Origin: a virus
Lineage: Duplodnaviria > Heunggongvirae > Uroviricota > Caudoviricetes
Length of the DNA: 64,000 nucleotides
IMG/VR virus record: IMGVR_UViG_3300047557_002576
Reading direction: 5' to 3' (one strand)
The notes under the pieces: generated by a model
Seen by the model: the letters and a program-made list of their open reading frames with translations, nothing else
Database searches by the model: none
Told to the model about the DNA's origin: nothing
Shown here: positions 12,881 to 58,995 of the stretch, in pieces
How positions within the stretch are numbered: the first letter of the stretch is position 1
Layout: each line of letters begins with the position of its first letter
Position numbers and translations under genes: made by a program

Positions 12881-12884
12881 GATT

Positions 12885-13020: not shown

Positions 13021-13399
13021 ATCCTTGCCTGTTGCATTTCACGAACCAAGTTTAGATAGTTGATTCGTGTAGTTTTTTCTACTTCAGCACAAGAATCTGT
13101 GCGATGTAGATGCCACTCACTGAACGCAATTTGCCATTCAGTGTGAAGTAATTTGAGGGCACTCATCAATAATGCCAGCGACTCATCACACTGTTAGGAT
13201 CATTGTACCAATCTTCCTCCTCATAAGTTGTAACTTTAGGAGTCATCCGAACAATCAGATCATCGGAGAGTGTGCAGACTCCAGTTGTAACTAACTGGAA
13301 AATCTCATCAGGTGTCAGAAAGGTTTCCATTGTGGTGTGGTGTGAACTTGAATCAGTATAAGGTGGAGAGGTGGGGGGTTGGTGCCCCCCGTGTGCAAC

Positions 13400-13663
13400 T
13401 TAATCGACTGTCACAATACAGCGGAACCGTTGCATCTCATCAGCGTAAGAGTCAAGATCCTCGCTTGAAGTATCCTCCCAAGCGATCCATTCATTGTCTC
13501 CCTTGTGAAGATCAATGCACACCAGATCAGGTGCATTCTTTGCAACCTGATTTACACTGCCGAAAAAGTCTACGTAGACTGCATCCCGTTGGGCGTAAAT
13601 CTCAGGTTCGGGATCCAGTGCGGTGATCCAGCGGATGCTGTCCAGGAAAGCGGTGAGATCCAT
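13400..13663 (-). CDS. hypothetical acidic protein
   Basis: Track ORF 13400..13771. Likely true start is MDLTAF at 13663, preceded by the CCACCACACCACACC leader. Confidence 0.45.
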   Translation of the reverse strand: MDLTAFLDSIRWITALDPEPEIYAQRDAVYVDFFGSVNQVAKNAPDLVCIDLHKGDNEWIAWEDTSSEDLDSYADEMQRFRCIVTVD

Positions 13664-14114: not shown

Positions 14115-14367
14115 CGGTGTGGTGTGGTGAACTGAGAGAATCATACAGACCACTGTGGCAGGTTCTGATCCAGGTTGTGCCAGTGGTCAGACTGTCCACC
14201 GATGCGGGTTTTGTGGGCGTGCTGGTGCCTATAATACGGGGACAATCGAAGGAGGTGCGGGGTAGCACTGTAGACGACAACGATCGACACCGACCCTGCC
14301 TTGAAATAATGGCGGAAAAAATACAAAGAAAGGGGGCGGATTGTGCCCCCTGTTTGATACTTTAGGA

Positions 14368-14646: not shown

Positions 14647-14717
14647 TGCTCCTCCGTTGTTGACTCTTACAGTATAAGGGTTGGAGTGGGGGTGCTGAGA
14701 CCCCCGTGTGCCAGTTC

Positions 14718-15395
14718 TCAGGGTGTCACAATGGCGTTAACTTTATTCTTTGATGCCCCGTGAGCAGGAAACGCTATCACAAACTCACGGTCTGCTACTT
14801 GACACAAACCACAAGTGGCACAAGTTACCTTACCAGGATGCAATGCTGCAGGGCAGGTAATCACCTTCCGCCCGTTGGTTGTTGTGAAGAATCGACGCTT
14901 TTCTTCACTGTTAACAACCGCAACGGCGGGAATCTTATACTCAGTCATTACACGGTCAGCATCATCAACCGACTCACATGATGCATTGACGGTAAATCCC
15001 ATTCCGTTTGCATTCTGTAGAGCGATCACGTTATGATCGTTCAGAATGTGGTGAGAATAGGTGAAACCTTTCTTACCTTTGTTTGCATCAATTAGGCGAC
15101 GCAGTTTAAGGTAATCAATGTTACCATCATTGTGAGGAAGATCTCCAGCGGTATTGTGCCGCCAGAGTGTATTCTTGGGGACGATTCGGCGGATCTGAGT
15201 AATAAACTCATCCCAATTTACGCCCGTTTCATTGCGGTTCAGGCGATCCCATTGCATACGCTCACGCCCAAGAGTAGCGTAGCATCCTGCATTGTAGAAT
15301 GGGCAGGTTGTAGGGCAGGATACCCGCTCCGTGCGTGTGGTGGTGATCGGACCAGTTTTAGCGTTACCTGAGACCTTTGTGATGGTGACGTTCAT
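14718..15395 (-). CDS. cysteine-rich hypothetical protein (225 aa)
   Basis: SCPTTCPFYNAGC and CATCGLC clusters; no confident family assignment. Cassette upstream. Confidence 0.5.
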   Translation of the reverse strand: MNVTITKVSGNAKTGPITTTRTERVSCPTTCPFYNAGCYATLGRERMQWDRLNRNETGVNWDEFITQIRRIVPKNTLWRHNTAGDLPHNDGNIDYLKLRRLIDANKGKKGFTYSHHILNDHNVIALQNANGMGFTVNASCESVDDADRVMTEYKIPAVAVVNSEEKRRFFTTTNGRKVITCPAALHPGKVTCATCGLCQVADREFVIAFPAHGASKNKVNAIVTP

Positions 15396-15479
15396 GGCGT
15401 GGTGTGGTGCCGTTGACTCCTACAGTATAGGGGATGGGGGCAGCGGTTGCCGCCCCCGTAGTGGACACTTAACGGATTG

Positions 15480-15947
15480 TCACGCTGCCCAGAGGTTTTC
15501 TTCAATCAGGCGATCAATCAGTGCCTTAGAGAGTGACCCACAGTGCTCACAATGGGTCTCAATCTTCACCTTTTCGTGCAGGTAGTTGTAGACAGTCACA
15601 GACTGATAGTGACCGAAGTGCCAGCGATAAACTGCACTGAGAGTTTGCAGATACTTACGGAAGACCACATAATCATCGTAAGAAGTGTGAGACTTCACCC
15701 AGTGATAGATGCCGATAAAGTGGCGGAAGTCGGGAGTTGTGCGGAAATAACCTTTGTTGGCAGCACGACTATACTTAAGGGCATCCATGATGCGATCTGC
15801 GTAATCCTTGCGGAAATACTTTTCAGTTACTTCCTGGCAGACTTCATCAAGTTTGCGAATACCTTCCTCATTCAGTTGCAGAGGAAGAATAGGATTAAAG
15901 AACGGGGCAGCGTTGTTGTTAGCGGTGCCGTTGTTGAAGAAGGACAT
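15480..15947 (-). CDS. hypothetical protein (likely about 155 aa)
   Basis: Track ORF 15480..16172 probably over-extends in GC-rich DNA. The internal ATG at 15945-15947 (MSFFNNG) is the likely start. Confidence 0.45.
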   Translation of the reverse strand: MSFFNNGTANNNAAPFFNPILPLQLNEEGIRKLDEVCQEVTEKYFRKDYADRIMDALKYSRAANKGYFRTTPDFRHFIGIYHWVKSHTSYDDYVVFRKYLQTLSAVYRWHFGHYQSVTVYNYLHEKVKIETHCEHCGSLSKALIDRLIEENLWAA

Positions 15948-16256
15948 GGTTCGGTTCGGTGTGGGTTGTCGGGGTGGTGTGCCGCCGATGAGTGAATGAT
16001 GCCCCGCCAGAATCCAGCACCACAACCGACCTTGTGACACTACCAGGATTGTCACATCAGGCAAACGGACACTACTAATAGATGGGATGAGACATAATGA
16101 CATAACAGTAGCGTTATCATTAAGACAATAAAAAGGATCGGGCACCACCCCGATCCTCTGTACCCACATCACCTATACCATGCTAGGATTATCTGTTCTC
16201 TTACTCGCTGGGTAACTTTACTGAACAGTTGGAGGCAAACCCCTTCCTCCTTTGTG

Positions 16257-16445: not shown

Positions 16446-16449
16446 GATG

Positions 16450-16572
16450 AATCTCGATCTCGATGTGTGTAATCTAGATCATTGTGCAGGTCTCGTCGAG
16501 ATTGATGTGCCACTAGATGATGTGGCACATCTCGTCGAGTTTCAGAACTGGATCTCGTCTAGGGTTGGAACA
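16450..16572. repeat. cluster B of palindromic iterons (GTCTCGTCGAGATT, ATCTCGTCGAGTT, ATCTCGTCTAGGG, AATCTAGATCAT) plus inverted repeat GTGCCAC-TAGATGATG-TGGCAC
   Basis: Read directly. Confidence 0.8.
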
Positions 16573-16695
16573 TTATCTTGACTAGATTCACTAGAGTCCA
16601 TCCCATTACACAGTGCATCAAGAATCGAAAGGATGCTGTTCCCATCAGTGCCTAGACGAAGTTGAGCAATCAGAAGATCTTTGGTCATTGTAGTT

Positions 16696-17114: not shown

Positions 17115-17350
17115 CAGTCGTTCTCCTCAAAGAGTGAGCGAATCTTAGTCAATGCAGTGTAGTAATCTTCCAGATACTCACAATCTTCATCTTCATACTG
17201 ACGATTACTGTCCAGAAGATCATGAATCAGATCCCATTCGGAATCTGTAAAGAACTCTTTGATGGGGTGTGTGGTGGTGTTCATGTGATGTCTCAGGAAC
17301 AAAGGTAGTATGGCAGGGATCTGGTGAAAACACAAGACCCCTTGTGCCAC
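17114..17350 (-). CDS. small acidic protein
   Basis: 78 aa; coupled to the downstream gene. Confidence 0.45.
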   Translation of the reverse strand: MAQGVLCFHQIPAILPLFLRHHMNTTTHPIKEFFTDSEWDLIHDLLDSNRQYEDEDCEYLEDYYTALTKIRSLFEEND

Positions 17351-17530
17351 TTACTTAACTGTCACACATCATAGCAGATGGTGCCTTGAAACTCATCTTC
17401 AACCAGTTTGTTCTCATAATCATCCCAGAGGTGAAGATTCAGGAGAAAGTTGAGATGATCGACCCATTGTGCGTTGAGTTGCATGATGTGATCGTGATTC
17501 CGAATGATGTCGGTGTTGTAGTAGTTCATT

Positions 17531-17713
17531 TCAGAAGTCCCAGTTAGAGTTCAGAAAAGCATCAAAGGATTCTTCTTCAGCAGGGAACTCATCATCAAGA
17601 TCCCGCATCTCAAGGAGATCCCAAATCTCACCCGGAGCATCAGCGATTTCAATCCAGAGGGTGTCTTCCATGAGTGGTGGTGTCGTTGGTTGACTCTTGA
17701 AGTATAGGGGCAC
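17531..17713 (-). CDS. small acidic protein
   Basis: 60 aa. Cassette variant upstream (TATACTTCAAGAGTCAACC..CACCACCACTCATG). Confidence 0.45.
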   Translation of the reverse strand: MPLYFKSQPTTPPLMEDTLWIEIADAPGEIWDLLEMRDLDDEFPAEEESFDAFLNSNWDF

Positions 17714-17747
17714 TGTAGCGTCTTCTAGGTGCCCCTTAGGTCAGTTG

Positions 17748-18005
17748 TCAGAGTGGCACACAAGCACCTTGACGGACTTGAGAATAAGACTCACCAAACA
17801 ATCCGCCATTCTTATGGTGAATCCCATAATAATAGCGTCGTGTGTTCACTTCAGTGAGACCAAAGTGTTGTGCAATCGTCTTGAATGAATGAGTCGGATA
17901 ACACTTCTTATAAGCGTTAATCATTGTACACCAGAACTCTGCGTGTTTGGTGAATCGAATGCTCTTGGATGGATGAACTTGAACGGTTCTCATGGTACTT
18001 GACAA
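17748..18005 (-). CDS. small helix-turn-helix protein
   Basis: TIAQHFGLTEVNTRRYYYG is HTH-like. Confidence 0.4.
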   Translation of the reverse strand: MSSTMRTVQVHPSKSIRFTKHAEFWCTMINAYKKCYPTHSFKTIAQHFGLTEVNTRRYYYGIHHKNGGLFGESYSQVRQGACVPL

Positions 18006-18073: not shown

Positions 18074-18577
18074 TTATACCGCTAGTGCCCCAGCAGGAAT
18101 GTCCACCAGTTCAGGATCCTGATCGGTGAACTGGTGCATATCGTAGCATACCCACTCACCCTCAGTGAACAGGTAAGAATATTCTTCACCTTTCGATAGA
18201 TACTCCTCTACCGAATCATCATGACGTGGTGGGGTATCTTCACCACGCTGAGAATAATAGAGTGGACCTTGTGCTACAGTTTCATTATTGAAACCAGCAT
18301 TAGTCCATGCAGAACTCATGTCACCTCCATCAATCAGTTCTGCTGCCTGATCATAGGAGTTGTAATGAGTCTTAAGAATACGACCCAACCAGGAAGGATA
18401 ACCATCCCAGTGATGATACGCAGAGAGCACAGAACCATCAGAGAGTTCAATGCCGATTCGTGATCTGGTTGCCATTGGTGTGGGGTGAACAACGATGTCA
18501 ATGTAGGGCATGAAGTGGGGGAAGGAACTCCCCCTTGTGTCAGTTGTTGAATCGTCACATTTTATATCCAGACACAA
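18074..18577 (-). CDS. hypothetical protein
   Basis: 167-aa track ORF; likely start at MPYIDIVV (18508). YHHWDGYPSWLG motif, no family recognised. Confidence 0.45.
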   Translation of the reverse strand: MCLDIKCDDSTTDTRGSSFPHFMPYIDIVVHPTPMATRSRIGIELSDGSVLSAYHHWDGYPSWLGRILKTHYNSYDQAAELIDGGDMSSAWTNAGFNNETVAQGPLYYSQRGEDTPPRHDDSVEEYLSKGEEYSYLFTEGEWVCYDMHQFTDQDPELVDIPAGALAV

Positions 18578-18729: not shown

Positions 18730-18785
18730 TATTTATAAGGCAAAAGCGGCACTTGGATTTGATCCTTGTGCCGCTTTTTTTATTG
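18730..18785. terminator. intrinsic terminator hairpin (AAAAGCGGCAC...GTGCCGCTTTTTTT, bidirectional A/T runs) with an adjacent minus-strand TATAAATA late-promoter box at 18730-18737
   Basis: Read directly. GC stem flanked by an A-run and a T-run. Confidence 0.6.
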
Positions 18786-19019
18786 TCACAGTATACTTGA
18801 CTACCGCGAATTCTTATGCTAGTATAAATCTGAATAGTCTTTGACTTTAGCAGTGACTGATTCATCTCCTTCTAACTTTAGAAGTTCATGCCAATTAATA
18901 TCTTCCAAGTCTAAATCATCATAACACTCAAGGTCTAGTGTGACTTGTACTAGGCGTTTTTGTGCGATCATAAGAACTCGTGGTAGTGTGGTCTAGATTC
19001 TATCATGCGTAGTGACGAA

Positions 19020-21339: not shown

Positions 21340-21415
21340 TTTGTGGATGAGAGTATTATAAGGCATCATAGGGACACTCAGAGCATCCCTGTGCCACTTA
21401 TGCTTGTGTCACAGG
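21340..21415 (-). promoter_or_regulatory. PeSL-like cassette: box GTGACACAAGCATAAGTGGCACAGGGA, hairpin, then TGATGCCTTATAATACTCTCATCCACAAAG
   Basis: Member of the recurrent cassette family. Confidence 0.5.
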
Positions 21416-23366: not shown

Positions 23367-23609
23367 GATTCAGTCCTCAGGGTAAAGTTTCCAACCGTCA
23401 GGGTTTAGACCAAACATTTCACATTGCTGCTCATAAGCGACACGTTGAAGAGTTTGGAGATCAGTGTTCAGAATAGCGTTCTGAATGGAGCGACGCATCT
23501 GAGCGTCTTGAGTGGTGTCCGTAATCATCAGAGGTGTGTTCCGATTACCTCTGTATTATAGGGGTATTGGAGGGGCAGGGGGAGGGGTCTTGTGACAGTT
23601 GTAAAAGTG

Positions 23610-24632
23610 TCAGTCTGCGAGTCCAACTCCACCAATTCCAAATCTTCCACCCGCTCCAGGAGTATATGATCTCGTATTAGATGCAGATCCGGTATTGGAA
23701 AGAGATCCTGAAAGTTTTGATTTGATTCTACTTGAGAGTTTTGGTTTTGGAGTGATTGGTTTTGGAATACTTGGTGCAGTAATAGGTGAAGTATTTTTTA
23801 ATGCTTTAATAGCAGCATTTGCACTTGGTCTGGATGGTTTTGCAGGAGCAATCTTTCTTGGTTCAACTTTGTTTGACCATGCTAATTTAGGTTTATGTGC
23901 TCTCTCTGCGTTAAGATCATCAATTTTTCTACTATTTGCATAACTTGTTTCAAGATCTCCAGAAAGTGGTGTAACTCTTTGAACACCTTTTTCGGATTGT
24001 TTTCGTGATGGTGGACGATTTACGGAAGCATATTGTCTTCCAAGAGATCCAACTTTTCCAAAACCTGCAACGCTTGAATATAGTTTTGATCTTGTATTTC
24101 GATCACTTGTATCATTGGAAAGTGGGAAATTTGTTAAAACTGAATTATTTGGAATTCGTGGAGCAACTTGATTTCTCCACATATTTGTAACATCTCTTAC
24201 AACTCTTCTTGCCTCTCCTGGATTATGTTTTTGTTTCATTGAATAATTACTCCATTCAACATCATAAACTGGTTTTTTGTCTGGAGAGATTTGATTTTTT
24301 TGATATATTCTCATTTCAACGTCACCCTTTTGATCACGCACTCTCATATAACTTGGACCTTCTCCAGATACATCATATCGACCACTTTTATCTGGACGTA
24401 AATTAAAGTTTGGATTATTTGCACCACGACTGACTTCTTGATTTCTTCTCTGCACTTGTTTTATTATTCTATCAAAGTGTTGAGGATTTTGTCTTCCTCC
24501 TCTAAAATACTCACCCTTTTGTCGATAATAAGAAGACGTTGCTTTACCATACGGTGTCTTTCCAGATGGTAAAGGTTCATCTGGTTCATAATATCTTTCT
24601 GCAATATGAATAAACTCTTTAAAGGTTTTCAT
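23610..24632 (-). CDS. internal-head-protein-like highly basic disordered protein (module B2) with T4 capsid-targeting-like N-terminus MKTFKEFIHIAE
   Basis: 340 aa, low complexity, K/R/S/G/P-rich. N-terminus resembles the T4 IPIII capsid-targeting sequence MKTYQEFIAE with an L/I-x-E cleavage motif. TATAAATA sits 25 nt upstream. Confidence 0.55.
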   Translation of the reverse strand: MKTFKEFIHIAERYYEPDEPLPSGKTPYGKATSSYYRQKGEYFRGGRQNPQHFDRIIKQVQRRNQEVSRGANNPNFNLRPDKSGRYDVSGEGPSYMRVRDQKGDVEMRIYQKNQISPDKKPVYDVEWSNYSMKQKHNPGEARRVVRDVTNMWRNQVAPRIPNNSVLTNFPLSNDTSDRNTRSKLYSSVAGFGKVGSLGRQYASVNRPPSRKQSEKGVQRVTPLSGDLETSYANSRKIDDLNAERAHKPKLAWSNKVEPRKIAPAKPSRPSANAAIKALKNTSPITAPSIPKPITPKPKLSSRIKSKLSGSLSNTGSASNTRSYTPGAGGRFGIGGVGLAD

Positions 24633-25060: not shown

Positions 25061-25144
25061 AAAACTACTAAAGATATATTTTTATTATAGCACCATCATT
25101 TGAATTGAAGAAAGATCTTATGTCAGTTGTGAAAGTGTCAGTAA

Positions 25145-26788: not shown

Positions 26789-27709
26789 TTATTTATCCCA
26801 TGCTTTCACTTTGTTGAAGTTTGCATGAGAGAACAGACGGCGATTGACAAATTTTACAAGGATCTCATCACTTCGAAGAACAAATCCTTCTTGATTGATT
26901 CGTTCACCATTTAGGTAAGAATCTGGGGAATTATCAGAACGACAGAAATGTAGAAAGTCAAGTTTCACACTTTCAGCAAGTTTCCAGAGGGAAATAAGGG
27001 CAGGATTCTCAAACTCATTAGGATTGATATCACGACCCTCACGAATTGCAGAGTTGATTTGTCTCTGAATCTCTTTCGATTCCTTAGGAGTTGCAAACTC
27101 CACAAGAGTTCCCATTTGCTTAATGAACGAAACTATTTCTACAAAGTCATCACGTTCTGCAATTAAGTGAGCGGTATTATCAACAAATAGAACACAATCA
27201 TCACTCTCAAGTTGAGGGGCAGAACCTACCACATAAGCATCTTTTAATTCACTTTCTGTTGCCCACTCAGTGTGAACAGATACAATAATCTTCTGAGAAA
27301 CTATCTCTGGAAACTTATAGGTGATGGTGTTGGGAGTATACTCATCTGATCCAGAAAATCCCAGAAAATCGCATTGAAAAATTTTATTTGTGCGAGGAAG
27401 ATAATCAAAGCAAGCGTGTAGAATATCTGCAACTTGTCCATCAAAGAGATTATCAATTTCCTGATGAGAATGACAAAGTTTAATCTTTACTTTATTAAAT
27501 GCAGATTTAGTGGATATACAAAACTTACCAGTCGCAGGATTAGTACCAAAAGCAATACTTGGAGAACCGTCAATTTTGGTTGAAAGATGAAAGTCTCCAA
27601 GAATAGCATCTAGGGCACGAAAGTCACCCGTCAGCAGATAATCTTCAAAATGATTTTGATGCAAATTTTGCATTGGATGTGTTTCTTTGATACTTATAGT
27701 ATGGCACAA
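26789..27709 (-). CDS. ATP-dependent RNA/DNA ligase-like nucleotidyltransferase
   Basis: KIDGS (motif I KxDG), EGFVLR (motif IV), LVKFV (motif V). Likely start is the internal MQNLHQ. Confidence 0.5.
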   Translation of the reverse strand: MCHTISIKETHPMQNLHQNHFEDYLLTGDFRALDAILGDFHLSTKIDGSPSIAFGTNPATGKFCISTKSAFNKVKIKLCHSHQEIDNLFDGQVADILHACFDYLPRTNKIFQCDFLGFSGSDEYTPNTITYKFPEIVSQKIIVSVHTEWATESELKDAYVVGSAPQLESDDCVLFVDNTAHLIAERDDFVEIVSFIKQMGTLVEFATPKESKEIQRQINSAIREGRDINPNEFENPALISLWKLAESVKLDFLHFCRSDNSPDSYLNGERINQEGFVLRSDEILVKFVNRRLFSHANFNKVKAWDK

Positions 27710-27711
27710 AG

Positions 27712-28476
27712 TCAGGAGGACCGCAAGGGGTCCTGTGTCAGTTCAGCGACCGTCCATCCTTTATGGTTAGATGCTTTTCTATTAATTACATTGTGTAGAG
27801 ATTTTCTGTCTAACGAATACTTTTCACAAAATTTTCGTAAGGTAGTATATTCCTCCACAATTTCACCAGTTGGAGATATAAATCTCCACATTTTATAGTG
27901 TCTTTTTATTATTTTGTCTTTAGTCTTTTGAGTGTGTTTTTTGCCATAAAAATGATTATCATCTCCTCTCATAGAGTTTGCTTTTTTTAATTTTAATTCA
28001 TCACTCCATATTCTACCTATATGAGTATTTCTTATTTTTTCTTTAGACTCTTCGGTATGAGTTTTTCCATACATTGGATTTTTTTCACCTTTAACTGCAT
28101 TACTCCATTTTTCATAACTACATTCAGTAAATACTCCAGTTTCCCATTTTCTTTTAGTTTCTTCACCAATTCTTTTCTTACGTTCTTCACTGAAGACTAT
28201 TCCACTTGCTCCTTCACCACCATCAGTTCTATTATAAAGAATACCAGTGCCTAAATCTTTCCTACCAAACACGGCAATCATATACTTCTCGTGTTTGAAT
28301 GCTTCTTCTTCAGTTAAATTTTGTTTGAGAAATATAATTCTGAATTTATCTTTTGGTAGGTTTATTCCGTCTTGATGTTTATTATATGCACGATTTTTAG
28401 TTCCTTTACCTATGTAATAAGGACTTCCATCCTTACGCAAGTAAGCATAAGTATAAAACCTGTTAGGATTTATCAT
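27712..28476 (-). CDS. GIY-YIG homing endonuclease
   Basis: FYTYAYLRKDGSPYYIGKG, then repeated GxxHxEExKxKI NUMOD3-like units. Confidence 0.75.
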   Translation of the reverse strand: MINPNRFYTYAYLRKDGSPYYIGKGTKNRAYNKHQDGINLPKDKFRIIFLKQNLTEEEAFKHEKYMIAVFGRKDLGTGILYNRTDGGEGASGIVFSEERKKRIGEETKRKWETGVFTECSYEKWSNAVKGEKNPMYGKTHTEESKEKIRNTHIGRIWSDELKLKKANSMRGDDNHFYGKKHTQKTKDKIIKRHYKMWRFISPTGEIVEEYTTLRKFCEKYSLDRKSLHNVINRKASNHKGWTVAELTQDPLRSS

Positions 28477-28537: not shown

Positions 28538-28619
28538 TGTTGCTTTAGTTGCGACACATAAGCATCATTATTTATTATAAAGAGCACCCCAACTAACCAA
28601 GATGCCCCATGTGACAGTT

Positions 28620-28778
28620 CTATTTCTGGTACACTGGTGGAGGCAATTCTGGACGATTCATCTCAGATGCTGTCTTCTGGATATTGAGCATCATACCATC
28701 CAGGGTCTTAGCAACAGGACCAAAACCAATGGTAGCAACAATAATACCGAAGATTGTACCAGAAATGAAGTTAAACAT
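28620..28778 (-). CDS. small membrane protein (52 aa)
   Basis: ATG overlaps the TGA of the SPFH gene. MFNFISGTIFGIIVATIGFGPVAK is one TM helix. Confidence 0.4.
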   Translation of the reverse strand: MFNFISGTIFGIIVATIGFGPVAKTLDGMMLNIQKTASEMNRPELPPPVYQK

Positions 28779-29791: not shown

Positions 29792-30034
29792 TCAGTTGTA
29801 AGTACAGAGTTGAGTCATGCGACCATACTGGATGCCTTCAGACCATTTACCACCAGCATTCAGACATTCTTGTTTGTTGGGAACGATGCTACTACCATTT
29901 TTGATGGCAGTGAAGATAGTAAGACCAACTCCCAAACTCACCATAATGAAAACAATAGTGATTATGAGTTCAACAATAGTGTAACCGTTTTTGGAAGGCA
30001 TTTGTTTGTTTGAACTGAAGTTATTATAGGGCAT
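29792..30034 (-). CDS. type IV pilin-like protein (prepilin N-terminal cleavage/methylation motif)
   Basis: SKNG|YTIVELIITIVFI: Gly(-1), Glu(+5), hydrophobic helix; C-terminal Cys pair CLNAGGKWSEGIQYGRMTQLC. Confidence 0.65.
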   Translation of the reverse strand: MPYNNFSSNKQMPSKNGYTIVELIITIVFIMVSLGVGLTIFTAIKNGSSIVPNKQECLNAGGKWSEGIQYGRMTQLCTYN

Positions 30035-30090
30035 CAGGAGGGGTCGCGGAAGACCCCCTGTGATACTTTAGGAACTGTCCTCAGATTGCT
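30030..30090 (-). promoter_or_regulatory. PeSL-like cassette (box GGACAGTTCCTAAAGTATCACAG, hairpin GGGGTC-GCGGAA-GACCCC, TATAAT)
   Basis: Cassette family member upstream of the pilin-like gene. Confidence 0.5.
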
Positions 30091-31173: not shown

Positions 31174-31299
31174 ATGAATTATAAAGGATTTTGATCAGGT
31201 TGAAAGCAGTGGAGTGCCACTTAGAAAACTGGCACAACCTCTACATTTGAACATCCCTGTGCAATGACATGCTTTTCCCACATTGACGCATCTTCAAGT

Positions 31300-32475: not shown

Positions 32476-33099
32476 TAATTTTAGCAGAGGATTGCCAATT
32501 GGTCAATTGACGTTTCAGTTCATAGAATACTGGCGTCAACTGAGAATAGAGAAACTTTTGCGATTCATTACCCTCTAGCAGTTGAGTGAGTGCATCAACA
32601 TGATCGATAGCAAGAATGAGTTTGGTTTTTTCTTTCATACAAACTCCATCAAATAGTAGTCCACAGTAACTTCCAATTCCGCTGCTTTCTCTTCAATTGC
32701 AAGTGCAAATAAATCTGCCTCAAGTTCTTCAAGGGCCTCGAAAAAGTCTTGCTCGTTCATGGATATTGAGTGGGGAAAATGAGGTTGAGAATTGCATCAC
32801 ATTCCTGATATGCCTTACTGTTTAAAGGCACATCATTAATCTGATACTTGCGAACTGCTTTGTAAATGATCTTCAGTTGTTCGGTCGTAAATTTCATTAT
32901 TTTTTACAATCAGGATGCATTTTTGCTTGAGAGTCTTGAGAGTTGCAAAATGCTTCTACGGTTGTCGGATGATCATAGATCATTTTGGGTTGCCTATTCT
33001 CAATAATAATAGATCCAACCCATCCAATAGCAAAACCAACTGCAGCAATGATGGGATACTTGAACTTCATCAAATTGGTGTGCATTGATTACTTACATA

Positions 33100-33594
33100 T
33101 CATACTACCTGCGTCAGGCGGTTGGGGAAGTAGTGTGCCACATGTCGAACTGGCACACCCACATCCAAAAGATACTGAAGATAGAGCAAAGATTCTTGCT
33201 GTCGTGCTTCAATCTCATGTGGTTGATCAATGTAATCATAATTTTCAATTTTGCAAGTACCGTAATACATTTTACTCCTCTTCATTTTTAAAGAACCATT
33301 CACCCATTGACGCAAATGCACTAACTCATGCAAAAGAGTCTTAATATAAATTTCATCTTCCATATAAGTGTCCAGTTCAATCAAGAATGATCGCGGACGC
33401 TTATAATCATCTGTAAAATCACAATATCCAAGCACACCTTCACGCTTCAATCCACGATGAACAATCTGAATATCAAGTTGATGGCGTGGTAGAAATTTAT
33501 CTAAAAACCAAATGGTAACATTCTCACAGAGGCGTTTGCGAAAACCATATCCAGTAATTTCAAGGTAAGATTGCATGACCAATGAGAAAACCAA
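33100..33594 (-). CDS. putative zinc metallopeptidase (HExxH)
   Basis: LLHELVHLRQW plus a downstream E. Confidence 0.4.
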   Translation of the reverse strand: MVFSLVMQSYLEITGYGFRKRLCENVTIWFLDKFLPRHQLDIQIVHRGLKREGVLGYCDFTDDYKRPRSFLIELDTYMEDEIYIKTLLHELVHLRQWVNGSLKMKRSKMYYGTCKIENYDYIDQPHEIEARQQESLLYLQYLLDVGVPVRHVAHYFPNRLTQVV

Positions 33595-34061: not shown

Positions 34062-34120
34062 ATTATAAAGGGTTCCCAGTGCCCTGAGAACCCCATATGT
34101 GCCAGTTGTAAAAGTGTCAC

Positions 34121-35804: not shown

Positions 35805-36388
35805 TCATTACCTTGAATTGGTTGAGTAACTTTACGAATTGTGTATGTTCCATCATTATTATCTACCCAATAAACTTGATCTCCCTCTTGAAGATTTGCC
35901 GCATCTAAAAGATCTTCTGGAAAAGAAACATAATATTGACCAGACGGATCATCCATTTCCACGGGAAGAATCCACTTTTTAATTTTATCTTTTACTTCTG
36001 GTGTCCATTCATATCCACCTTCCTTGCGGATATGATCTATTTGTTCGTTAAGATTTGTTTTGTTATTCATATGATTCAATGCTTCTTCTGGATAATAATT
36101 TTCTTCCCAAAAGTCATTCCATGCGTTTTGACACTCTTTTGTGGTATCACCATCACGAAGATCTCCTACAGTTGCCTGCCAAGCATCTTTGAATTTCTCA
36201 TCAAACTCTTCAATAAAATATCCAAGAAACTCATATGCTGCCATTGTCATTTTTTCAGCACGGTCTTTTTGATTATAAGAAAGTGCTTCATTTGCAACGT
36301 CAATCATTTCACGGGCAGAAACAACCTTTGAAATAATCATCTCAAGGGCATTCATCGTGTCCCATACACGCTGATACTTAACGGGCAT
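35798..36388 (-). CDS. hypothetical protein with C-terminal AbrB/MazE-like swapped-hairpin domain
   Basis: YYVSFPEDLLDAANLQEGDQVYWVDNNDGTYTIRK. Confidence 0.45.
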   Translation of the reverse strand: MPVKYQRVWDTMNALEMIISKVVSAREMIDVANEALSYNQKDRAEKMTMAAYEFLGYFIEEFDEKFKDAWQATVGDLRDGDTTKECQNAWNDFWEENYYPEEALNHMNNKTNLNEQIDHIRKEGGYEWTPEVKDKIKKWILPVEMDDPSGQYYVSFPEDLLDAANLQEGDQVYWVDNNDGTYTIRKVTQPIQGNEC

Positions 36389-36733: not shown

Positions 36734-36833
36734 CTATTTTGCCTCCTATTTCCATTGCACAGATAATATCGACTCTTGTTCCAAAATGTGCTAAAGCACG
36801 TTCAAAATCATCATTTAGTTCATACACAATCAT
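36648..36833 (-). CDS. hypothetical protein
   Basis: 61 aa; ATGA overlap with the endonuclease. Confidence 0.35.
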   Translation of the reverse strand: MIVYELNDDFERALAHFGTRVDIICAMEIGGKIDADTAYKNIKMELKELKRIRKQYKKEVQ

Positions 36834-37438
36834 TTCCTCCTATTATAGGGTTTTAACTTTAATCTTCCAGATTTCCACTCATTTCCTGGACATTCTACAC
36901 TTCTTTTGTTGATTTGTCCATTATTCCACCATTTTGAGTTTTTGTGATTGTTATGATGTTCTCCCAAAGATTTACCTAGATGAGATAATCTAATTTTTTC
37001 TCTTGTTTCTAGGGTATGTTTTTTACCAAAAATCCATGGCATTTTACCTCTATTCACTTCACTCAATTTTTTCTTCGTTTCTTCACTACATAATTTTCCA
37101 AAATTTGATTTAGAAATCTTTTCCTTAGTTTCTTTAGTGTGTTTCCATCCACTTTTACCATCTCCTCCAAGTGTACTATTATATCCACATTTAAAACTAT
37201 CATATTCTCTTATATAAGTAACTTCTTTTTGTGATAATAAGCACTCATCACATTCTTCAATTATGCCGTAAATAAAATTTTTCCAACCATATTTTCTAAC
37301 AGCGTTGTAAAATTTTCTTTTAGAACCACTTCTTACCATATGGCAATGATGTTCTTTTCTCTTTCTTTCATATAATGTTTTTCCAATGTATTTCTTTCCT
37401 GTGGAAATACAGTGGTAGCAATAAATTACTCCTTTCAT
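36830..37438 (-). CDS. GIY-YIG homing endonuclease
   Basis: GVIYCYHCISTGKKYIGKT; NUMOD3-like repeats. Confidence 0.75.
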   Translation of the reverse strand: MKGVIYCYHCISTGKKYIGKTLYERKRKEHHCHMVRSGSKRKFYNAVRKYGWKNFIYGIIEECDECLLSQKEVTYIREYDSFKCGYNSTLGGDGKSGWKHTKETKEKISKSNFGKLCSEETKKKLSEVNRGKMPWIFGKKHTLETREKIRLSHLGKSLGEHHNNHKNSKWWNNGQINKRSVECPGNEWKSGRLKLKPYNRRK

Positions 37439-38193: not shown

Positions 38194-38396
38194 TCGTTGT
38201 CCTCCTTAAATGTAATAGTGTAATCTTTTTTCTTAAATTTACAACGCTCAATGTATTTCTTGGCGTGTGCTTCAGTCTGAAAGTAGCAAGTTTTCTTGTC
38301 CTTAAGATCCTTACCATCTTTGTGGACAACCTTTACAGGAAATCCAGAATGGGGAAACTCTTCTTTCACAGGTTTAATCATCAAGTTCAACTCCAT
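38190..38396 (-). CDS. hypothetical protein
   Basis: 68 aa. Confidence 0.4.
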   Translation of the reverse strand: MELNLMIKPVKEEFPHSGFPVKVVHKDGKDLKDKKTCYFQTEAHAKKYIERCKFKKKDYTITFKEDNE

Positions 38397-39282: not shown

Positions 39283-39551
39283 AATGTCTCCAGTTCATCA
39301 GCAATTTCATAAAGTTCATCAGCATAAAATACCACATCTACCACACGAGCATCCTGATGATATTTTACTTCATTATTATGAGCAATCTGTCGCAGAGCAG
39401 TTGCAAGTGCTTCTTTTACATCCTCACCATTTTTTACACCATTATCAATCAGTTCCCCACAAAATGCTTTCCAGATTTCTTGTGCTCTTACTGAAGTCAT
39501 AGTTTTCATTTCGTATGTAGTCATTATACGATAAAAGTCACCATATTTCAA
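39279..39551 (-). CDS. hypothetical protein
   Basis: 90 aa. Confidence 0.45.
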   Translation of the reverse strand: MKYGDFYRIMTTYEMKTMTSVRAQEIWKAFCGELIDNGVKNGEDVKEALATALRQIAHNNEVKYHQDARVVDVVFYADELYEIADELETL

Positions 39552-39579
39552 GTTCCCTGTTCCAGTTCATCAAGTGTCC

Positions 39580-40239
39580 TTATAATATTCTGCGTCTTTT
39601 AGAAGTGTCTATTCCTCTTGCTTTTTGATATTTTGTTAGTGCTCCCGAAGTTGTAACATAACCTGTTTCGCAACATTCCCATCTTTGAGAATTAGTTTTT
39701 GATACTGTTTCTCTCCTTTGTTCTGGTGTAATACCATAAAATCCAATTTTATTTTTTCTATTAAATTCATCTGCTTTTTTAGCATTTTCTTTTAATTGTT
39801 CTTTTGTTAATACAGCAAGTCCTGTTCCATTTTTATAACATCTTTTTCCGTGTTCTTTTCTTTCTTCCTTGGTATATGCGTGAAATCCTAATTTGAGTTC
39901 TTTTGATTGGTTTCCAACTCTCTTACCATTTTTTCTTGTAGCATCTAAAGATATTTTAGCACCACAACTTGCGTTCAAACACCATTTATCAGTTTGATAG
40001 AATGGATTTATCAATCTATCTTCAACTAAATTTGCTTCTAACCAACCTTCATCTGTAAAGTCAAAAAGTTGAAGTATTTGCTTCTTTGGTGTATAAAATT
40101 CCCAGCACCATTTATGAGTTACGGGAGAACCCATATAATACTCACCATACCTCTTTTCTTTATGAACTCCATAATAGTAATATGGAACTTCTTCAAAGGT
40201 AATCTTGTATATGTAAATTCTTGGACTATTTTTAGTCAT
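39580..40239 (-). CDS. Seg-like GIY-YIG homing endonuclease, paralogue 1
   Basis: RIYIYKITFEEVPYYYYGVHKE; repeated LGxGxH.LTxEQRxExGKK units. Hairpin and TATAAATA upstream. Confidence 0.7.
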   Translation of the reverse strand: MTKNSPRIYIYKITFEEVPYYYYGVHKEKRYGEYYMGSPVTHKWCWEFYTPKKQILQLFDFTDEGWLEANLVEDRLINPFYQTDKWCLNASCGAKISLDATRKNGKRVGNQSKELKLGFHAYTKEERKEHGKRCYKNGTGLAVLTKEQLKENAKKADEFNRKNKIGFYGITPEQRRETVSKTNSQRWECCETGYVTTSGALTKYQKARGIDTSKRRRIL

Positions 40240-40264: not shown

Positions 40265-40297
40265 TATTTATAATAGAAAAGGTGCCCGAAAGCACCT
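40265..40297 (-). promoter_or_regulatory. hairpin (GGTGCTTTCGGGCACC) plus TTTT plus TATAAATA late promoter
   Basis: Read directly. Confidence 0.55.
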
Positions 40298-41489: not shown

Positions 41490-41789
41490 TCAGTTTTCCG
41501 TTAATTCAAGTTCTTCAATCATACTTTCGCTCCAAGTAATACCATCAAAATCTTCAGGGCATTCCATCCAATTTTGGGCATCTTCTTCGGTTTCAAAATC
41601 TTTATAACCAATGTTGGTTTCAACAATTTTTACGGTGTAAGTCATCAGGTGCCTTTGTGTTTGCGATACTATTATAGTGCATCCAGGAGGAAATCCCAGA
41701 TATCCTGTGACAGTTTGGAAAGTGTCCTTAACTATAATTAAAGTGATAATGTGTTTCCCAGATAAATCCTGGTTGGTCTCGTTTGTCAA
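41490..41789 (-). CDS. hypothetical protein
   Basis: 99 aa. Confidence 0.4.
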   Translation of the reverse strand: MTNETNQDLSGKHIITLIIVKDTFQTVTGYLGFPPGCTIIVSQTQRHLMTYTVKIVETNIGYKDFETEEDAQNWMECPEDFDGITWSESMIEELELTEN

Positions 41790-44274: not shown

Positions 44275-44654
44275 TTCAGTTCTCCATAAGAAAGTTCTTT
44301 GATTTCTTGTTTATTCAAAGTTTTACAATACCCAAAAGTATTATAATCTTCCCCAGCATCAAAGATAAAAACAGGAATATTTCGTTCTTTACAGATTTCT
44401 TTGAACTTATCTCCGTCAAGTTCAAACTTTCCAACATACTCTACATTTGGATACCTGTCCCAAGATACTACAAGTCCTTCTGGATAATAACTCCATTCAA
44501 ACTCATCAAGTTCTTTGATAATGGTTTCAACCTCTTTGATGTTTTCTGGATTGGTGTAAATTCTACCATATCCTTTGTATGTGAAAGCAGTCATTTCAGT
44601 TCTTTTTGAAGAGTTTGTAGATGGCATCAGCAATAGCAAGTGCTTGTTCTTCAT
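44271..44654 (-). CDS. hypothetical protein
   Basis: 127 aa. Confidence 0.45.
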   Translation of the reverse strand: MKNKHLLLLMPSTNSSKRTEMTAFTYKGYGRIYTNPENIKEVETIIKELDEFEWSYYPEGLVVSWDRYPNVEYVGKFELDGDKFKEICKERNIPVFIFDAGEDYNTFGYCKTLNKQEIKELSYGELK

Positions 44655-44817
44655 TCATACAAATGTGTTGCACTCGTTTATCACCTTTCTCAACATCATA
44701 TACCCAATAAGAAATGGTGCAACCATCACATCCCACATCAAGGTGAGTGTCTTCTACTGTATACCAAAAATCTTCGTATTGTTGAATACGAATTTGATGG
44801 GTGATTTCAACAGGCAT
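44596..44817 (-). CDS. hypothetical protein
   Basis: 73 aa; cassette upstream. Confidence 0.45.
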   Translation of the reverse strand: MPVEITHQIRIQQYEDFWYTVEDTHLDVGCDGCTISYWVYDVEKGDKRVQHICMNEEQALAIADAIYKLFKKN

Positions 44818-44830
44818 TTGGAGTTCCTTT

Positions 44831-44902
44831 GTGTATGAGAGTATTATAAGGCATCACAGGGGAATTTGGAGTGTCCCTGTGCCAGTTCTTCAAGTGTCCT
44901 TA
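44831..44902 (-). promoter_or_regulatory. PeSL-like cassette: AAGGACACTTGAAGAACTGGCACAG; hairpin CACAGGG-ACACTCCAAATTC-CCCTGTG; ATGCCTTATAATACTCTCATACACAAAGGA; 8 nt; ATG
   Basis: Archetype copy. Confidence 0.55.
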
Positions 44903-45229
44903 AAACTTCTCTTCAATTTCTTGTTTTGTTGCTACTTCCACATTAGGATAACTCACATCCTCATAACCACGCAAGTCAAAATTCAAAACCAGTTGTCCAA
45001 CAACATTATCACACAGATAATCAGCAAAAATGTTAGGGTCAAGTTCTCCCTCATCTGTAAGCATATCATCGTCCTTATGCTTTTCAGGGTCAAACCTAAT
45101 ATAAAAGGTCACTTTATAACCTTTTAGATTTTTTAGATTATCTTTGTGTTTTTGTTCTTCCTTATGTTTTTGGATTTGAAGTTGAAGTTCGTTGATTTGG
45201 TCTTCGGTCAGTTGAGAGAGGTCAATCAT
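44900..45229 (-). CDS. hypothetical protein
   Basis: 109 aa. Confidence 0.45.
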   Translation of the reverse strand: MIDLSQLTEDQINELQLQIQKHKEEQKHKDNLKNLKGYKVTFYIRFDPEKHKDDDMLTDEGELDPNIFADYLCDNVVGQLVLNFDLRGYEDVSYPNVEVATKQEIEEKF

Positions 45230-45240: not shown

Positions 45241-45312
45241 CTTATGAGAGTATTATAGACCAATAGGAGACCTTGTTGGGTCTCCCTGTGCCAGTTCTTC
45301 AAGTGTCCTTAT
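45241..45312 (-). promoter_or_regulatory. PeSL-like cassette copy (hairpin GGAGACC-CAACAA-GGTCTCC)
   Basis: Box AAGGACACTTGAAGAACTGGCACAGGG is identical to the archetype; hairpin differs with compensatory changes. Confidence 0.55.
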
Positions 45313-45980
45313 AATATTCGTTTTCTTTTAGAAGTGTCTATACCTTTTGCCCTTTGATATTGAGTAAGATTTCCTGCGTTAGTTGTAAATCCAGTTTCAA
45401 GACATTCCCATCGTTGTGAAGCAACTTTTTTACCAGTTTCACTTCTTTGTTCTGTGGTAAGTGCGTGAATACCAAGTCCAAGTTCTTTTACTTTTTTACC
45501 AGCAATAGCACCTCCTCGTTTTCCATTTTCACTTAATTCTTCTTTTGATAAAGAATGTACTCCTACGCCAAGTTCTTTTGCTTTTTTACCATTTTTACTT
45601 TTTTGTTCTAAAGTAAGTGCGTAAATACCTGTCCCAAGTTCTTTACACTTATTCACACCAATACTTCCTGCTCTTATTTGATGCTCTATAGAAAATCTAC
45701 CACCACAATTTTCATTAAGACACCACTTATCATCATTATAAACAGGTCTTATTAATCTCTTTTCAACTTCTTGTGCTTCTATCCATCCATCATCTGTAAA
45801 AGGAAAGATTTCTAATATTTGTTTCTTTGGAGTATAAAGTTCCCAACACCACTTATGAGAATATGGAGAACCCATATAATACTCATTATACTTTTTCTCT
45901 TTATGAACTCCATAATAGTAATATGGAACTTCTTCAAAGGTAATCTTATATGTGTAAATTCTTGGACTTTGTGAAGTCAT
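45309..45980 (-). CDS. Seg-like GIY-YIG homing endonuclease, paralogue 2
   Basis: RIYTYKITFEEVPYYYYGVHKE. Confidence 0.7.
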   Translation of the reverse strand: MTSQSPRIYTYKITFEEVPYYYYGVHKEKKYNEYYMGSPYSHKWCWELYTPKKQILEIFPFTDDGWIEAQEVEKRLIRPVYNDDKWCLNENCGGRFSIEHQIRAGSIGVNKCKELGTGIYALTLEQKSKNGKKAKELGVGVHSLSKEELSENGKRGGAIAGKKVKELGLGIHALTTEQRSETGKKVASQRWECLETGFTTNAGNLTQYQRAKGIDTSKRKRIL

Positions 45981-46005: not shown

Positions 46006-46040
46006 TATTTATAATAGAAAAGGTGCCCCGAAGAGCACCT
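46006..46040 (-). promoter_or_regulatory. hairpin plus TATAAATA late promoter module
   Basis: GGTGCTCTTCGGGGCACC, TTTTCTATTATAAATA. Confidence 0.55.
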
Positions 46041-47565: not shown

Positions 47566-47634
47566 CGGTTTGGTTGCTTATGAGGTTATTATACAACAAA
47601 AAGGTGCCTTGTAGGGAACCTATGTGACGGTTCT

Positions 47635-47844
47635 TCAAGTGTCCTCCCATCGGTCTTGGACCCAATCAGAACATACCCATAATAGTTTATCATCATAATA
47701 ACAATCTAAATCAGCAGGAACTTTTTTGTAAAGTTCAGGATTGTATTTGTAAAGTTCATTCATAAAAGATTGACCTACTCGCAGACCTTTATCATCTTCC
47801 CAATAAGAATTAACAAAGTTTTTGTAGAAAGTTTCGTAAGTCAT
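47635..47844 (-). CDS. hypothetical protein
   Basis: 69 aa. Confidence 0.4.
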   Translation of the reverse strand: MTYETFYKNFVNSYWEDDKGLRVGQSFMNELYKYNPELYKKVPADLDCYYDDKLLWVCSDWVQDRWEDT

Positions 47845-48230: not shown

Positions 48231-48303
48231 TTGTGTATGAGAGTATTATAAGGCATTATAGTGACACTTGGAGCATCTCTGTGCCAGTTTATCAAGTGTC
48301 TTC
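48231..48303 (-). promoter_or_regulatory. PeSL-like cassette copy
   Basis: GAAGACACTTGATAAACTGGCACAG, hairpin, ATGCCTTATAATACTCTCATACACAAAGGA. Confidence 0.5.
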
Positions 48304-48690: not shown

Positions 48691-48957
48691 AGGAGTTTAT
48701 TATGAATATAAGAATATTATAGACCAAAAAGGACACCCGAAGGTGCCCTAGTGTGCCAGTTCTTCAAGTGTCCTCAGTCTTCTAATGGAAGAGAAAATAC
48801 TTCAACTTCATTAGGAAGTACAAGAATTTGGGTTTTTTTCACAGCACATTGAATTGAGTTTTCAATTTCTTTCTTTTGTTCCGAAGTATAAGTATCTGGA
48901 ACTTTTGCTACAATAATTGATTTGGTCATAATAGTTCATCAAGGTTTTTGGAAGAAG

Positions 48958-51554: not shown

Positions 51555-51622
51555 ATGAATGTATTATAAGGCATCACAGAAGAACTTGGAGTGCCCTTGT
51601 GTCGGTTTGTAAAGTGTCCTCA
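51555..51622 (-). promoter_or_regulatory. PeSL-like cassette copy
   Basis: GAGGACACTTTACAAACCGACACAAGGG, hairpin, ATGCCTTATAATACATTCATAGACAAC. Confidence 0.5.
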
Positions 51623-53255: not shown

Positions 53256-53326
53256 TCAGGTCTTTTGGACTACGGGTTTATTATAGGTTAAAAGAATGGA
53301 ATTGGTAAAGGTCTTGTGACAGTTTA

Positions 53327-53596
53327 TCAAGTGTCTGGTGGTAGGTCATAATATGTGGAGTCTCTCCAGTTGCGACCCAAAAAATCCATTGAAAAACCAA
53401 ATTTTGATGCTGTAAGAAGAACTGAAAATAACCTTCCCTGCCCCATAGTAATATTAAGATAAGGAAGTTCAGTCCACTTTGAATAGACCCCAATATCAAA
53501 CTCCGCTTGAAGGAGTGAGTATCTTTTTGTGGAAAATAGAAAGAGATAATACTCTTTTCCGTAATCGTCTCTAACACCAAATTTGATTAATTTCAT
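53327..53596 (-). CDS. hypothetical protein
   Basis: 89 aa; preferred over the overlapping 53281..53580 frame because of ATGA coupling. Confidence 0.4.
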   Translation of the reverse strand: MKLIKFGVRDDYGKEYYLFLFSTKRYSLLQAEFDIGVYSKWTELPYLNITMGQGRLFSVLLTASKFGFSMDFLGRNWRDSTYYDLPPDT

Positions 53597-54036: not shown

Positions 54037-54105
54037 GATTAAAACTGATTGACTTACATACTATAAGACCCCTGACTGCGAAAGTCAAGGGTCAATGGAC
54101 GGTTT

Positions 54106-54300
54106 TTAATCTGTCTTTTTTTCGTAATATTTGCACCAACCATCTGCTGCTATTTTACCACGAACTGCTGTACATCTAGCAGGTGGTCTCCACATAGTAC
54201 ATTTGTCGCAACGTTGCTGCCCCTTAGGACTGTCCTGGTAGTCGGCGGTTGGTTTTGCGACTTTTTCCTCTTCTGTAAGAAAATCCTTAAAAGATTTCAT
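54106..54300 (-). CDS. HiPIP-like iron-sulfur protein with capsid-targeting-like N-terminus MKSFKDFLTEEE
   Basis: C-x2-C-x8-C-x12-C with CTAVRGKIAADGWCKYY matches the HiPIP signature C-x(6,9)-[LIVM]-x3-G-[YW]-C-x2-[FYW]. Confidence 0.45.
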   Translation of the reverse strand: MKSFKDFLTEEEKVAKPTADYQDSPKGQQRCDKCTMWRPPARCTAVRGKIAADGWCKYYEKKTD

Positions 54301-58910: not shown

Positions 58911-58944
58911 GGGGGGTCGTGTGTATGCAGATATTATACAGCGA

Positions 58945-58995
58945 AAAACCGCCCCTGAAGAGTCTCAGTGGACGGTTTCGAAAGTGTCTTTAAAG
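58945..58995 (-). promoter_or_regulatory. PeSL-like box variant (GACACTTTCGAAACCGTCCACTGAGAC) in the divergent intergenic region
   Basis: Family member upstream of the helicase. Confidence 0.35.

Follow-up and report, generated by a model that had tools for sequence, protein, structure and literature searches.

A repeated palindrome, spacer and -10 cassette in the small-gene region of a T4-like cyanomyovirus, probably an early-type promoter module

The window analysed here is the whole 64,000-nucleotide stretch of the IMG/VR virus record IMGVR_UViG_3300047557_002576 (Caudoviricetes). Its nearest records are the T4-like cyanomyoviruses S-SRM01, which comes from a freshwater reservoir, S-PM2, in its 'ORFanage' region, and S-CREM1, the matches being patchy. 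The window contains a repeated cassette of about 80 nt that occupies the entire gap between two small genes. The copy described first lies at 44831-44902 on the minus strand, and its letters are exactly those given in a first-pass annotation of this DNA. Read in the direction of the genes it begins at the TAA stop codon (44900-44902) of the open reading frame (ORF) 44900..45229, the last base of which is also the first base of a box, AGGACACTTGAAGAACTGGCACA (44878-44900). This box is a quasi-palindromic putative operator with half-sites AGGACA (44895-44900) and TGGCAC (44879-44884). A hairpin follows, CACAGGG-(13 nt loop)-CCCTGTG (44855-44881), whose 5' arm overlaps the last four bases of the box and whose minimum free energy (MFE) is -10.9 kcal/mol (z = -3.7). 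The -10 hexamer TATAAT (44843-44848) begins 52 nt past the box start, and transcription is predicted from the sequence to start 7 nt past the -10, at the A of CATAC (44836). The cassette ends with a Shine-Dalgarno sequence AAGGA (44825-44829) and the ATG (44815-44817) of ORF 44596..44817.

There are 30 copies of the cassette in the window, between 13.4 and 59.0 kb, on the minus strand without exception and co-oriented with the genes. Copies are named by the coordinate of their box start on the minus strand of the window (for example 48774 and 53337). The field of cassettes is bounded by a helicase gene (57681-58910) and the gene of the gp6 baseplate wedge protein (5322-7259), and its density is 30 copies in the 46 kb between these two genes. 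We take it to be the hyperplastic small-gene (early) region that precedes gp25/gp6, as in S-PM2, Syn9, ACG-2014f, S-SRM01 and P-HM1.

The repeat is real and far beyond chance. The template GACAC-N9-TGNCAC has 18 minus-strand matches at 9 or 10 of its 10 specified bases, where shuffled sequences give about one, and a position weight matrix made from the copies has 28 minus-strand matches above 10 bits, where ten shuffles give 0-1; the first-pass annotation's claim of a repeated cassette ahead of small minus-strand genes is thus borne out. The total of 30 consists of the weight-matrix set, copy 58990 from that annotation and the degenerate copy 54117, which is the one extra found by a sequence-only Infernal model. 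This model recovers the 29 copies on which it was trained at E <= 2e-5, which is circular by construction, and it was kept sequence-only because RNAalifold gave no consensus structure for the 29-copy alignment. Among the 25 positions that had been listed previously 24 are true copies, but the one at 14340 is a plain GC terminator hairpin with a T-run and no box. The estimate had been about 27 copies, and six copies (54117, 39580, 33156, 18789, 16528 and 14198) lie beyond the listed positions. Box matches on the plus strand are the same sites in reverse, because the box is palindromic. We found no orphan boxes: each minus-strand match has a -10 hexamer at 52-54 nt, except a borderline match at 30448 (10.5 bits) that we take to be due to chance. 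Scans of the window gave no Rfam match at gathering thresholds and no tRNA.

The box is a 22-bp quasi-palindrome, GTGNCASTT-N4-AASTGNCAC, with the core GTGNCA-N10-TGNCAC. The logo pooled from 105 copies in five phages reads G T G A C A S T T n n n n A A S T G G C A C A. The inverted repeat is perfect at the core in several copies, such as 31235 and 33156, which have GTGCCA-N10-TGGCAC. The box had been described as two direct half-sites about 16 nt apart. This is not borne out: the site is an inverted repeat, and the direct-repeat reading was discarded since the plus-strand matches are the same sites reversed and several inverted repeats are perfect. In the 105 copies the half-sites are complementary only as often as base frequencies predict, and at the variable box position the left half mostly has A and the right half G, two bases that cannot pair. 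The lack of covariation between half-sites and the A/G mismatch suggest a site for a protein dimer rather than a stem. A stem of RNA or DNA at the box was rejected, as the paired positions do not covary. Two subtypes of the cassette are present, a marine type (GTGACA box, TATACT) and an AT-rich type (AGGACACTTGAAGAACTGGCACA ... TATAATACTCTCATA), to which many of the window copies belong.

The distance from the box start to the -10 hexamer (TATAAT or TATACT) is nearly invariant. Of 29 window copies 15 have 52 nt, 11 have 53 nt and 3 have 54 nt; for the 105 copies pooled from five phages the counts are 38, 57 and 10. Of 371 unique IMG/VR copies of high confidence (among the matches listed) 360 have 52 or 53 nt. 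A -10 hexamer is found in all copies, in general with a short CATA-type initiation motif after it, and the 371 IMG/VR copies have a conserved ATA 6-8 nt past the -10. The ATG lies 13-48 nt past the -10, and the leader of about 20 nt carries a Shine-Dalgarno sequence. This leader had been called strongly conserved, which is true in general of the -10 hexamer and the CATA-type motif but not of the 30-nt string ATGCCTTATAATACTCTCATACACAAAGGA, present in only 3 copies at <= 3 mismatches.

No conserved -35 is present in the window copies, where the best hexamer 16-18 nt from the -10 matches TTGACA at an average of 2.7 of 6 bases; a plausible -35 is found only in copies 39580, 53337 and 54117. A scan of 38-54 kb for canonical sigma-70 promoters gave 54, with 55 expected, and so no enrichment. 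The stop codon of the upstream gene falls between -6 and +12 from the box start in about 20 of 29 copies, often abutting the box as TAA or TGA or coinciding with the TGA inside GTGACA. The upstream ORF continues across the spacer in three copies and ends in or close to the -10; these are 53337, which lacks a hairpin, 33156, whose hairpin is weak, and 27756.

The spacer between box and -10 often contains a hairpin. It is strong (MFE <= -8 kcal/mol) in 16 of 29 window copies (about 55%) and absent in about 8-10, and the mean z for spacer folding against shuffles is -1.95 for these 29 copies. In the 371 IMG/VR copies a strong hairpin is found in 46%, with a mean z of -2.2. Among 223 pooled hairpins the stem begins at box positions 19-26; where a stem is present it ends 0-13 nt ahead of the -10. 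RNAalifold finds 0 consensus pairs on the nearly gap-free, register-true alignment of 29 copies, so each copy has its own stem in the same 30-nt zone and there is no shared register. The first-pass annotation had proposed a hairpin that varies in sequence with its pairing kept by compensatory changes. The potential to form a hairpin is indeed conserved, but about 45% of copies lack one, and compensatory changes are not shown, as RNAalifold gives neither a shared register nor column-wise covariation. Only one of the 29 window hairpins, that of copy 48774, passes an intrinsic-terminator rule. The spacer is the one part of the densely packed gap that is free of constraint, and its hairpin would most simply be an element of the upstream transcript's 3' end: a terminator proper if a T-run comes next, and in other cases a hairpin for pausing or stability. 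A cruciform, in which the hairpin is extruded so that TGGCAC would come to lie about as far from the -10 as a -35 does, was rejected by hand on two copies, where the residual spacing is 13 nt and about 6 nt.

The same architecture is common to cyanomyoviruses of freshwater Synechococcus, marine Synechococcus and Prochlorococcus. S-PM2 has 11 copies on the gene strand in its first 25 kb, S-SRM01 has 25 copies in the 50 kb examined, and Syn9 has about 7 between 44.7 and 53 kb, directly ahead of annotated genes such as gp68, gp78 and gp79. ACG-2014f has 34 copies between 27 and 58 kb, with the consensus GTGACAGTTGGAGAAGTGGCACA-(GC hairpin or C-rich spacer)-TGC-TATACT-ATATTCATACCAAAGGAACC-ATG; here the loop of the hairpin resembles a -35 (TTGGCA or TAGGCA) and lies exactly 17 nt ahead of the -10. 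In these four phages all copies lie within the small-gene region upstream of gp25/gp6. The Prochlorococcus phage P-HM1 has about 6 copies, on both strands following gene direction, and its palindromic box at 38246-38268 has -10 hexamers 43.5 bp to each side, ahead of divergent genes. IMG/VR contigs contain at least 688 copies in at least 120 contigs, with two or more copies at at least 107 loci. BLAST with the marine-type cassette returns mostly ACG-2014f isolates and is too insensitive for a motif of 85 nt.

In the S-PM2 ORFanage three of four cassettes (8574, 9854 and 11348) are of the AT-rich subtype. Two AT-rich cassettes of this region align by BLAST to window cassettes with 79-94% identity over 66-87 nt, and cassette 11348 aligns to the window over a 31-nt stretch only, at 94%. 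An earlier study of the ORFanage noted the hairpin at 11369-11391, not the box, and discounted the involvement of Promoter-early-Stem-Loop (PeSL) elements (PMC4503421). The sequence comparison suggests that this region of S-PM2 may have been acquired as cassette-plus-gene modules from freshwater-type phages.

We propose that the cassette is probably an early-type promoter module of a T4-like cyanomyovirus, made of a palindromic box, a phased distance and a -10, often with a hairpin between. The invariant parts are the palindrome, the phased distance and the -10; the spacer is free. An activator-type promoter with an upstream site is the best supported reading. For the phage of the window we infer both promoter activity and early timing from the sequence. 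A putative dimeric DNA-binding protein would occupy the box, whose centre is about 42 bp from the -10 on its upstream side and near -53 from the start site. It would recruit host RNA polymerase to the -10, or stabilise it there, in place of a -35 contact. The spacer of about 30 nt would be without sequence constraint, and in about half of the copies it would encode a GC-rich RNA hairpin that forms, ends or protects the 3' end of the upstream gene's transcript at the RNA level. More tentatively, and with rather less confidence than in the promoter itself, we suggest that a dimeric activator may use the box as its operator, taking the place of -35 recognition and setting off the entire early programme of T4-like cyanophages, with the spacer reused for the 3'-end hairpin of the upstream message.

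The binding factor would already be there when the DNA enters. As the cassette genes look to be the first transcribed, it should be a conserved host protein or one delivered by the virion; candidates would be a conserved factor that Prochlorococcus and Synechococcus have in common, or a protein that the phage injects along with its DNA. Generalist T4-like cyanophages have been shown to transcribe early genes even in resistant hosts, which fits a factor that is conserved in hosts or virion-borne (PMC6708340). T4-like cyanophages lack the T4 genes alt, modA/B, motA and asiA that retune the host polymerase, which leaves the question of how they start infection (PMC2984593). The same review describes sigma-70-like motifs upstream of early genes in S-PM2 and Syn9 and calls early and middle control in cyanomyoviruses unclear (PMC2984593). 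The cassette offers an architecture that is concrete and can be tested, namely a 22-bp palindrome whose distance to the -10 is fixed and phased, usable in both directions and found from freshwater to open-ocean phages. A 23-bp box probe should suffice to fish out the binding factor. In annotation the cassette serves as a marker for units of early transcription and for the starts of genes, both in cyanophage genomes and in viral contigs. If the activator reading is true, the design is that of a terminator nested inside a promoter, which has not been described for PeSLs.

Several observations weigh against this proposal. The centre of the box, at about -53, is at neither the classical class I (-61.5) nor the class II (-41.5) activator position. 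The mirror partners at box positions 6 and 15 (44894 and 44885 in the copy described first) agree in base (C,C or G,G) in 65 of 105 copies with 45 expected, and are complementary in only 25, again with 45 expected. This excess identity lies outside what a simple symmetric-dimer model predicts; it could reflect shared descent of subfamilies or a true asymmetry of the binding protein. A -35-like hexamer is present in 26% of the 371 IMG/VR copies, compared with 7% of shuffled spacers, so that some copies may act as ordinary sigma-70 promoters. Five or more T in the next 8 nt follow only about 20% of the 223 pooled hairpins. A box scan of 185,579 bacterial genomes gave no picocyanobacteria among the matches listed, a result that neither shows nor excludes a host regulon.

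The box could instead be the operator of a repressor, encoded by the phage, that ends early transcription when middle genes take over, with the -10 alone driving constitutive initiation by host polymerase. Palindromic operators are typical of repressors, promoters with a -10 alone are common in picocyanobacteria, and the window encodes a protein of the AbrB/MazE type (35798-36388). However, the box lies at about -64 to -43, upstream of the -35 zone and clear of the -10 and the start site, and the strict helical phasing together with its symmetric, two-sided use in P-HM1 fits recruitment better than occlusion. We consider a repressor site unlikely as the main explanation, although repressor and activator roles of the box are not mutually exclusive and could coexist. 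The position of the upstream stop codon, close to the box start in most copies, and of the hairpin, which begins right at the end of the box, would also suit an RNA element formed by box and hairpin at the 3' end of the upstream message, acting in processing, termination or stability, with an incidental link to the -10. Such an element is highly improbable: the box half-sites show no stem-like covariation, the hairpin is missing in nearly half of the copies and has no RNAalifold consensus, Rfam has no match, and P-HM1 uses its box in both orientations. Moreover, the invariant distance is that to the downstream -10, not that to the upstream stop.

It is conceivable, but very unlikely, that the cassette is a true PeSL, a mobile terminator-promoter that mainly mediates modular gene shuffling, with the box as a crossover or recognition site. 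Small genes are mosaic among the window phage, S-SRM01 and S-PM2, and genes of S-SRM01 and of the S-PM2 ORFanage have homologues scattered out of order in the window. The segment 45310-44897 of the window, with box starts as its limits, shares 96% identity with S-SRM01 14643-15056, and S-SRM01 17329-17394 matches only the window cassette at 44899-44834 (97%), the downstream genes being different. Seven of 28 ends of well-conserved blocks (ends of high-scoring segment pairs) fall within a cassette of either genome, with 11.6% expected (P ~0.04). This enrichment is weak and rests largely on one locus, however, most breakpoints being at plain gene boundaries. The defining features of a PeSL fail as well, the -35 being absent and the stem-loop lying within the promoter (PMC4122927), and the strict spacing from box to -10 points to selection for transcription. 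Under the promoter reading that we prefer, the repeats of about 80 nt would in addition provide homology through which recombination could reshuffle neighbouring genes, a secondary and weakly supported effect. Recombination at the cassettes, as a by-product of their repetition, has modest support.

The copies of the window differ in detail, and in what follows their coordinates run from box to -10, all on the minus strand. The copy at 58933..58990, ahead of the helicase gene, has a degenerate 3' half-site, CGTCCA. The degenerate thirtieth copy (54060..54117) has the box AAGACAGATTAAAAACCGTCCAT, a hairpin and a -35, TTGACT, 17 nt before its -10, TATAGT. At 53280..53337 the copy is without a hairpin, and the upstream ORF crosses the spacer to stop at the TAA inside TATAAT. 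The copy at 51563..51620 is followed by that at 48716..48774, whose hairpin GGGCACC/GGTGTCC plus TTTTT is the sole one to pass the terminator rule, and by those at 48245..48302 and 47588..47645. The copy at 45252..45309, with the hairpin GGGAGACC/GGTCTCC, starts the module 45310-44897. Beyond it lie copies at 41671..41728 and at 39523..39580, the latter with a -35-like TTGAAA 17 nt before TATAAT, and at 34062..34120, with an 11-bp hairpin of -18.9 kcal/mol. Two copies have a perfect palindromic core: 33099..33156, GTGCCA...TGGCAC, where the upstream ORF crosses the spacer, and 31178..31235, which has no hairpin. Further copies are found at 30023..30081, 28574..28632, 27698..27756 (-10 CATACT), 25084..25141 (no hairpin), 23555..23613 (C-rich spacer, no hairpin), 21355..21412 and 18732..18789 (-10 TATAAA). 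The copy at 18500..18558 is in or adjoins a GC-rich block, and those at 17701..17759 and 17307..17365 lie in it. A weak -10, TAGATT, and no hairpin are found at 16471..16528; the copy at 15996..16055 also has a weak -10 and is the least certain of all. The hairpin of the copy at 15424..15483, GGGGGCGGC/GCTGCCCCC, has -20.9 kcal/mol, and the remaining copies are at 14671..14729, 14140..14198 and 13355..13414.

The GC-rich block is the part of the window from 10000 to 18000, with 44-51% GC and 30-38% elsewhere. Its cassettes are of the marine-type subtype (GTGACA box, TATACT, AGTCAA/CACCACACC leaders), S-SRM01 has a homologous block, and the block may be a laterally acquired module. An 18-nt motif, CATAACAGTAGCGTTATG, containing the inverted repeat ATAAC-N6-GTTAT, occurs on the plus strand twice in tandem at 12372-12412 and once at 16101-16118, with 0.04 expected by chance; it could be a second operator-like site.

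Several genes within the cassette field have recognisable features. The gene at 35798-36388 (-) encodes a 196-aa protein with a C-terminal DNA-binding domain of the AbrB/MazE type, the Pfam match being weak (E = 6e-4). Its homologue in S-SRM01 is annotated as AbrB family, and the domain order recalls the cyanobacterial cyAbrB regulators; from its sequence the protein is a candidate phage DNA-binding regulator. The genes at 39580-40239 and 45309-45980 (-) are paralogues of about 220 aa without a Pfam match, each ending exactly at a cassette box. Upstream of both is the same terminator-like hairpin, AGGTGC..GCACC plus TTTCTATTAT (40280-40297 and 46021-46040), and S-SRM01 has a third relative (16001-16801 of the stretch examined). 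A GIY-YIG/NUMOD3 homing endonuclease (36830-37438, minus strand) and a second protein resembling a homing or HNH endonuclease (27712-28476, minus strand) are also encoded in the field, and these homing-type endonucleases offer an alternative route for local gene mobility. A ferredoxin-dependent bilin reductase (34353-35000, minus strand) and an SPFH/Band 7 protein (28778-29620, minus strand) among the small genes look like host-like auxiliary genes. Divergent from the cassette field is a 719-aa ORF on the plus strand (59103-61262), which has no PHROG match.

Palindromes of similar form are found in other bacteria. Among the matches listed in the genome scan Mojavia, Hyella and Xenococcaceae carry perfect palindromes GTGACAGTT-N4-AACTGTCAC, without a coherent gene context, and perfect palindromes TGTGACAGTT-N4-AACTGTCACA occur in several non-picocyanobacterial cyanobacteria and in many metagenome-assembled genomes of Acidobacteriota. 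In Mojavia pulchra the palindromes at 3108-3130 and 5192-5214 lie upstream of two paralogous genes for beta-helix proteins. As a rough figure, symmetric sites account for about 40% of the listed matches, where about 25% are expected. These palindromes may belong to an unrelated operator family or may be a lead to the box-binding protein.

The arrangement of the cassette resembles that of NtcA-dependent promoters and of CRP class I and class II promoters, where a 22-bp palindrome is likewise placed upstream of a good -10, at a distance that is constant and helically phased, and the -35 is poor. It differs from them in its site, GTGNCA-N10-TGNCAC rather than GTA-N8-TAC for NtcA or TGTGA-N6-TCACA for CRP, and in its centre at about -53 rather than -41.5 or -61.5. 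A site of the CRP/FNR/NtcA type, in which pentamer half-sites lie 4-8 nt apart in a 22-bp palindrome, was rejected, because the box read as TGTGA...TCACA has halves 14 nt apart and its logo is GTGACASTT-N4-AASTGGCAC. A sigma-54 promoter (-24 TGGCAC, -12 TTGC) was also rejected: TGGCAC is there, followed for example by AGGGA-GACC, and in the copies listed no TTGC comes after the required 5 nt. Cyanobacteria are not known to have sigma-54. A minority of copies (48774 and several from IMG/VR) have a GC stem and a T-run leading into the -10, and in this they are like a rho-independent terminator that overlaps the next promoter; the cassettes at large differ from such terminators, given the single window hairpin and the roughly one fifth of pooled hairpins described above. 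Canonical sigma-70 promoters and intrinsic terminators were set aside as explanations, as the scans for them were neither enriched nor explanatory, and so was a structured RNA family, for which Rfam gave no match and RNAalifold no pairs in 29 copies.

PeSLs have been defined as a stem-loop just upstream of a sigma-70 promoter (-35 and -10), a Shine-Dalgarno sequence and an ATG, and are found in hyperplastic regions and at indels (PMC4122927). The cassette shares with them its composite make-up, a stem-loop and an early promoter joined to a Shine-Dalgarno sequence and an ATG (Arbiol et al. 2010, PMC2839356; Comeau et al. 2014, PMC4122927). Like them it fills the gaps between small ORFs, is dense in hyperplastic regions and may have some link to gene replacements between relatives. 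PeSLs have a -35 and a -10 with a 17-nt spacer, an AT-rich upstream region and a stem-loop upstream of the promoter, whereas the cassette has no -35, a GC-containing palindrome in place of the AT-rich region, and an optional hairpin that lies between box and -10. The resemblance to PeSLs that the first-pass annotation had seen is thus functional, in the composite logic, location and density, but membership fails. Its remark that the box is different is supported with respect to coliphage PeSLs, as is its reading of a repeated composite cassette; the parts are a promoter, a stem-loop that is optional, a Shine-Dalgarno sequence and an ATG, set among small genes in a T4-type cyanophage's hyperplastic region.

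The closest comparison is with the early genes of Syn9. Doron et al. (2016, ISME J 10:1437) reportedly found that a novel regulatory element drives early genes in Syn9 and P-TIM40, and this element is said to be abundant and conserved among T4-like cyanophages and in metagenomes. We found no description of the Syn9 motif in papers citing that work. The reported element is like the cassette in being repeated upstream of small early-region genes and in being unlike a canonical sigma-70 promoter, and Syn9 itself has the box with the same spacing in its small-gene region (gp68, gp78, gp79). The placement of the window copies, ahead of small genes between the helicase and gp25/gp6, agrees with an element of the earliest gene class. 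The cassette is the only highly repeated element of that region of Syn9, and for this reason, together with the matching distribution, we regard it as highly likely that the two are the same. The copies in the window are very probably a new set of members, in a freshwater-type cyanomyovirus, of a regulatory element that has already been published.

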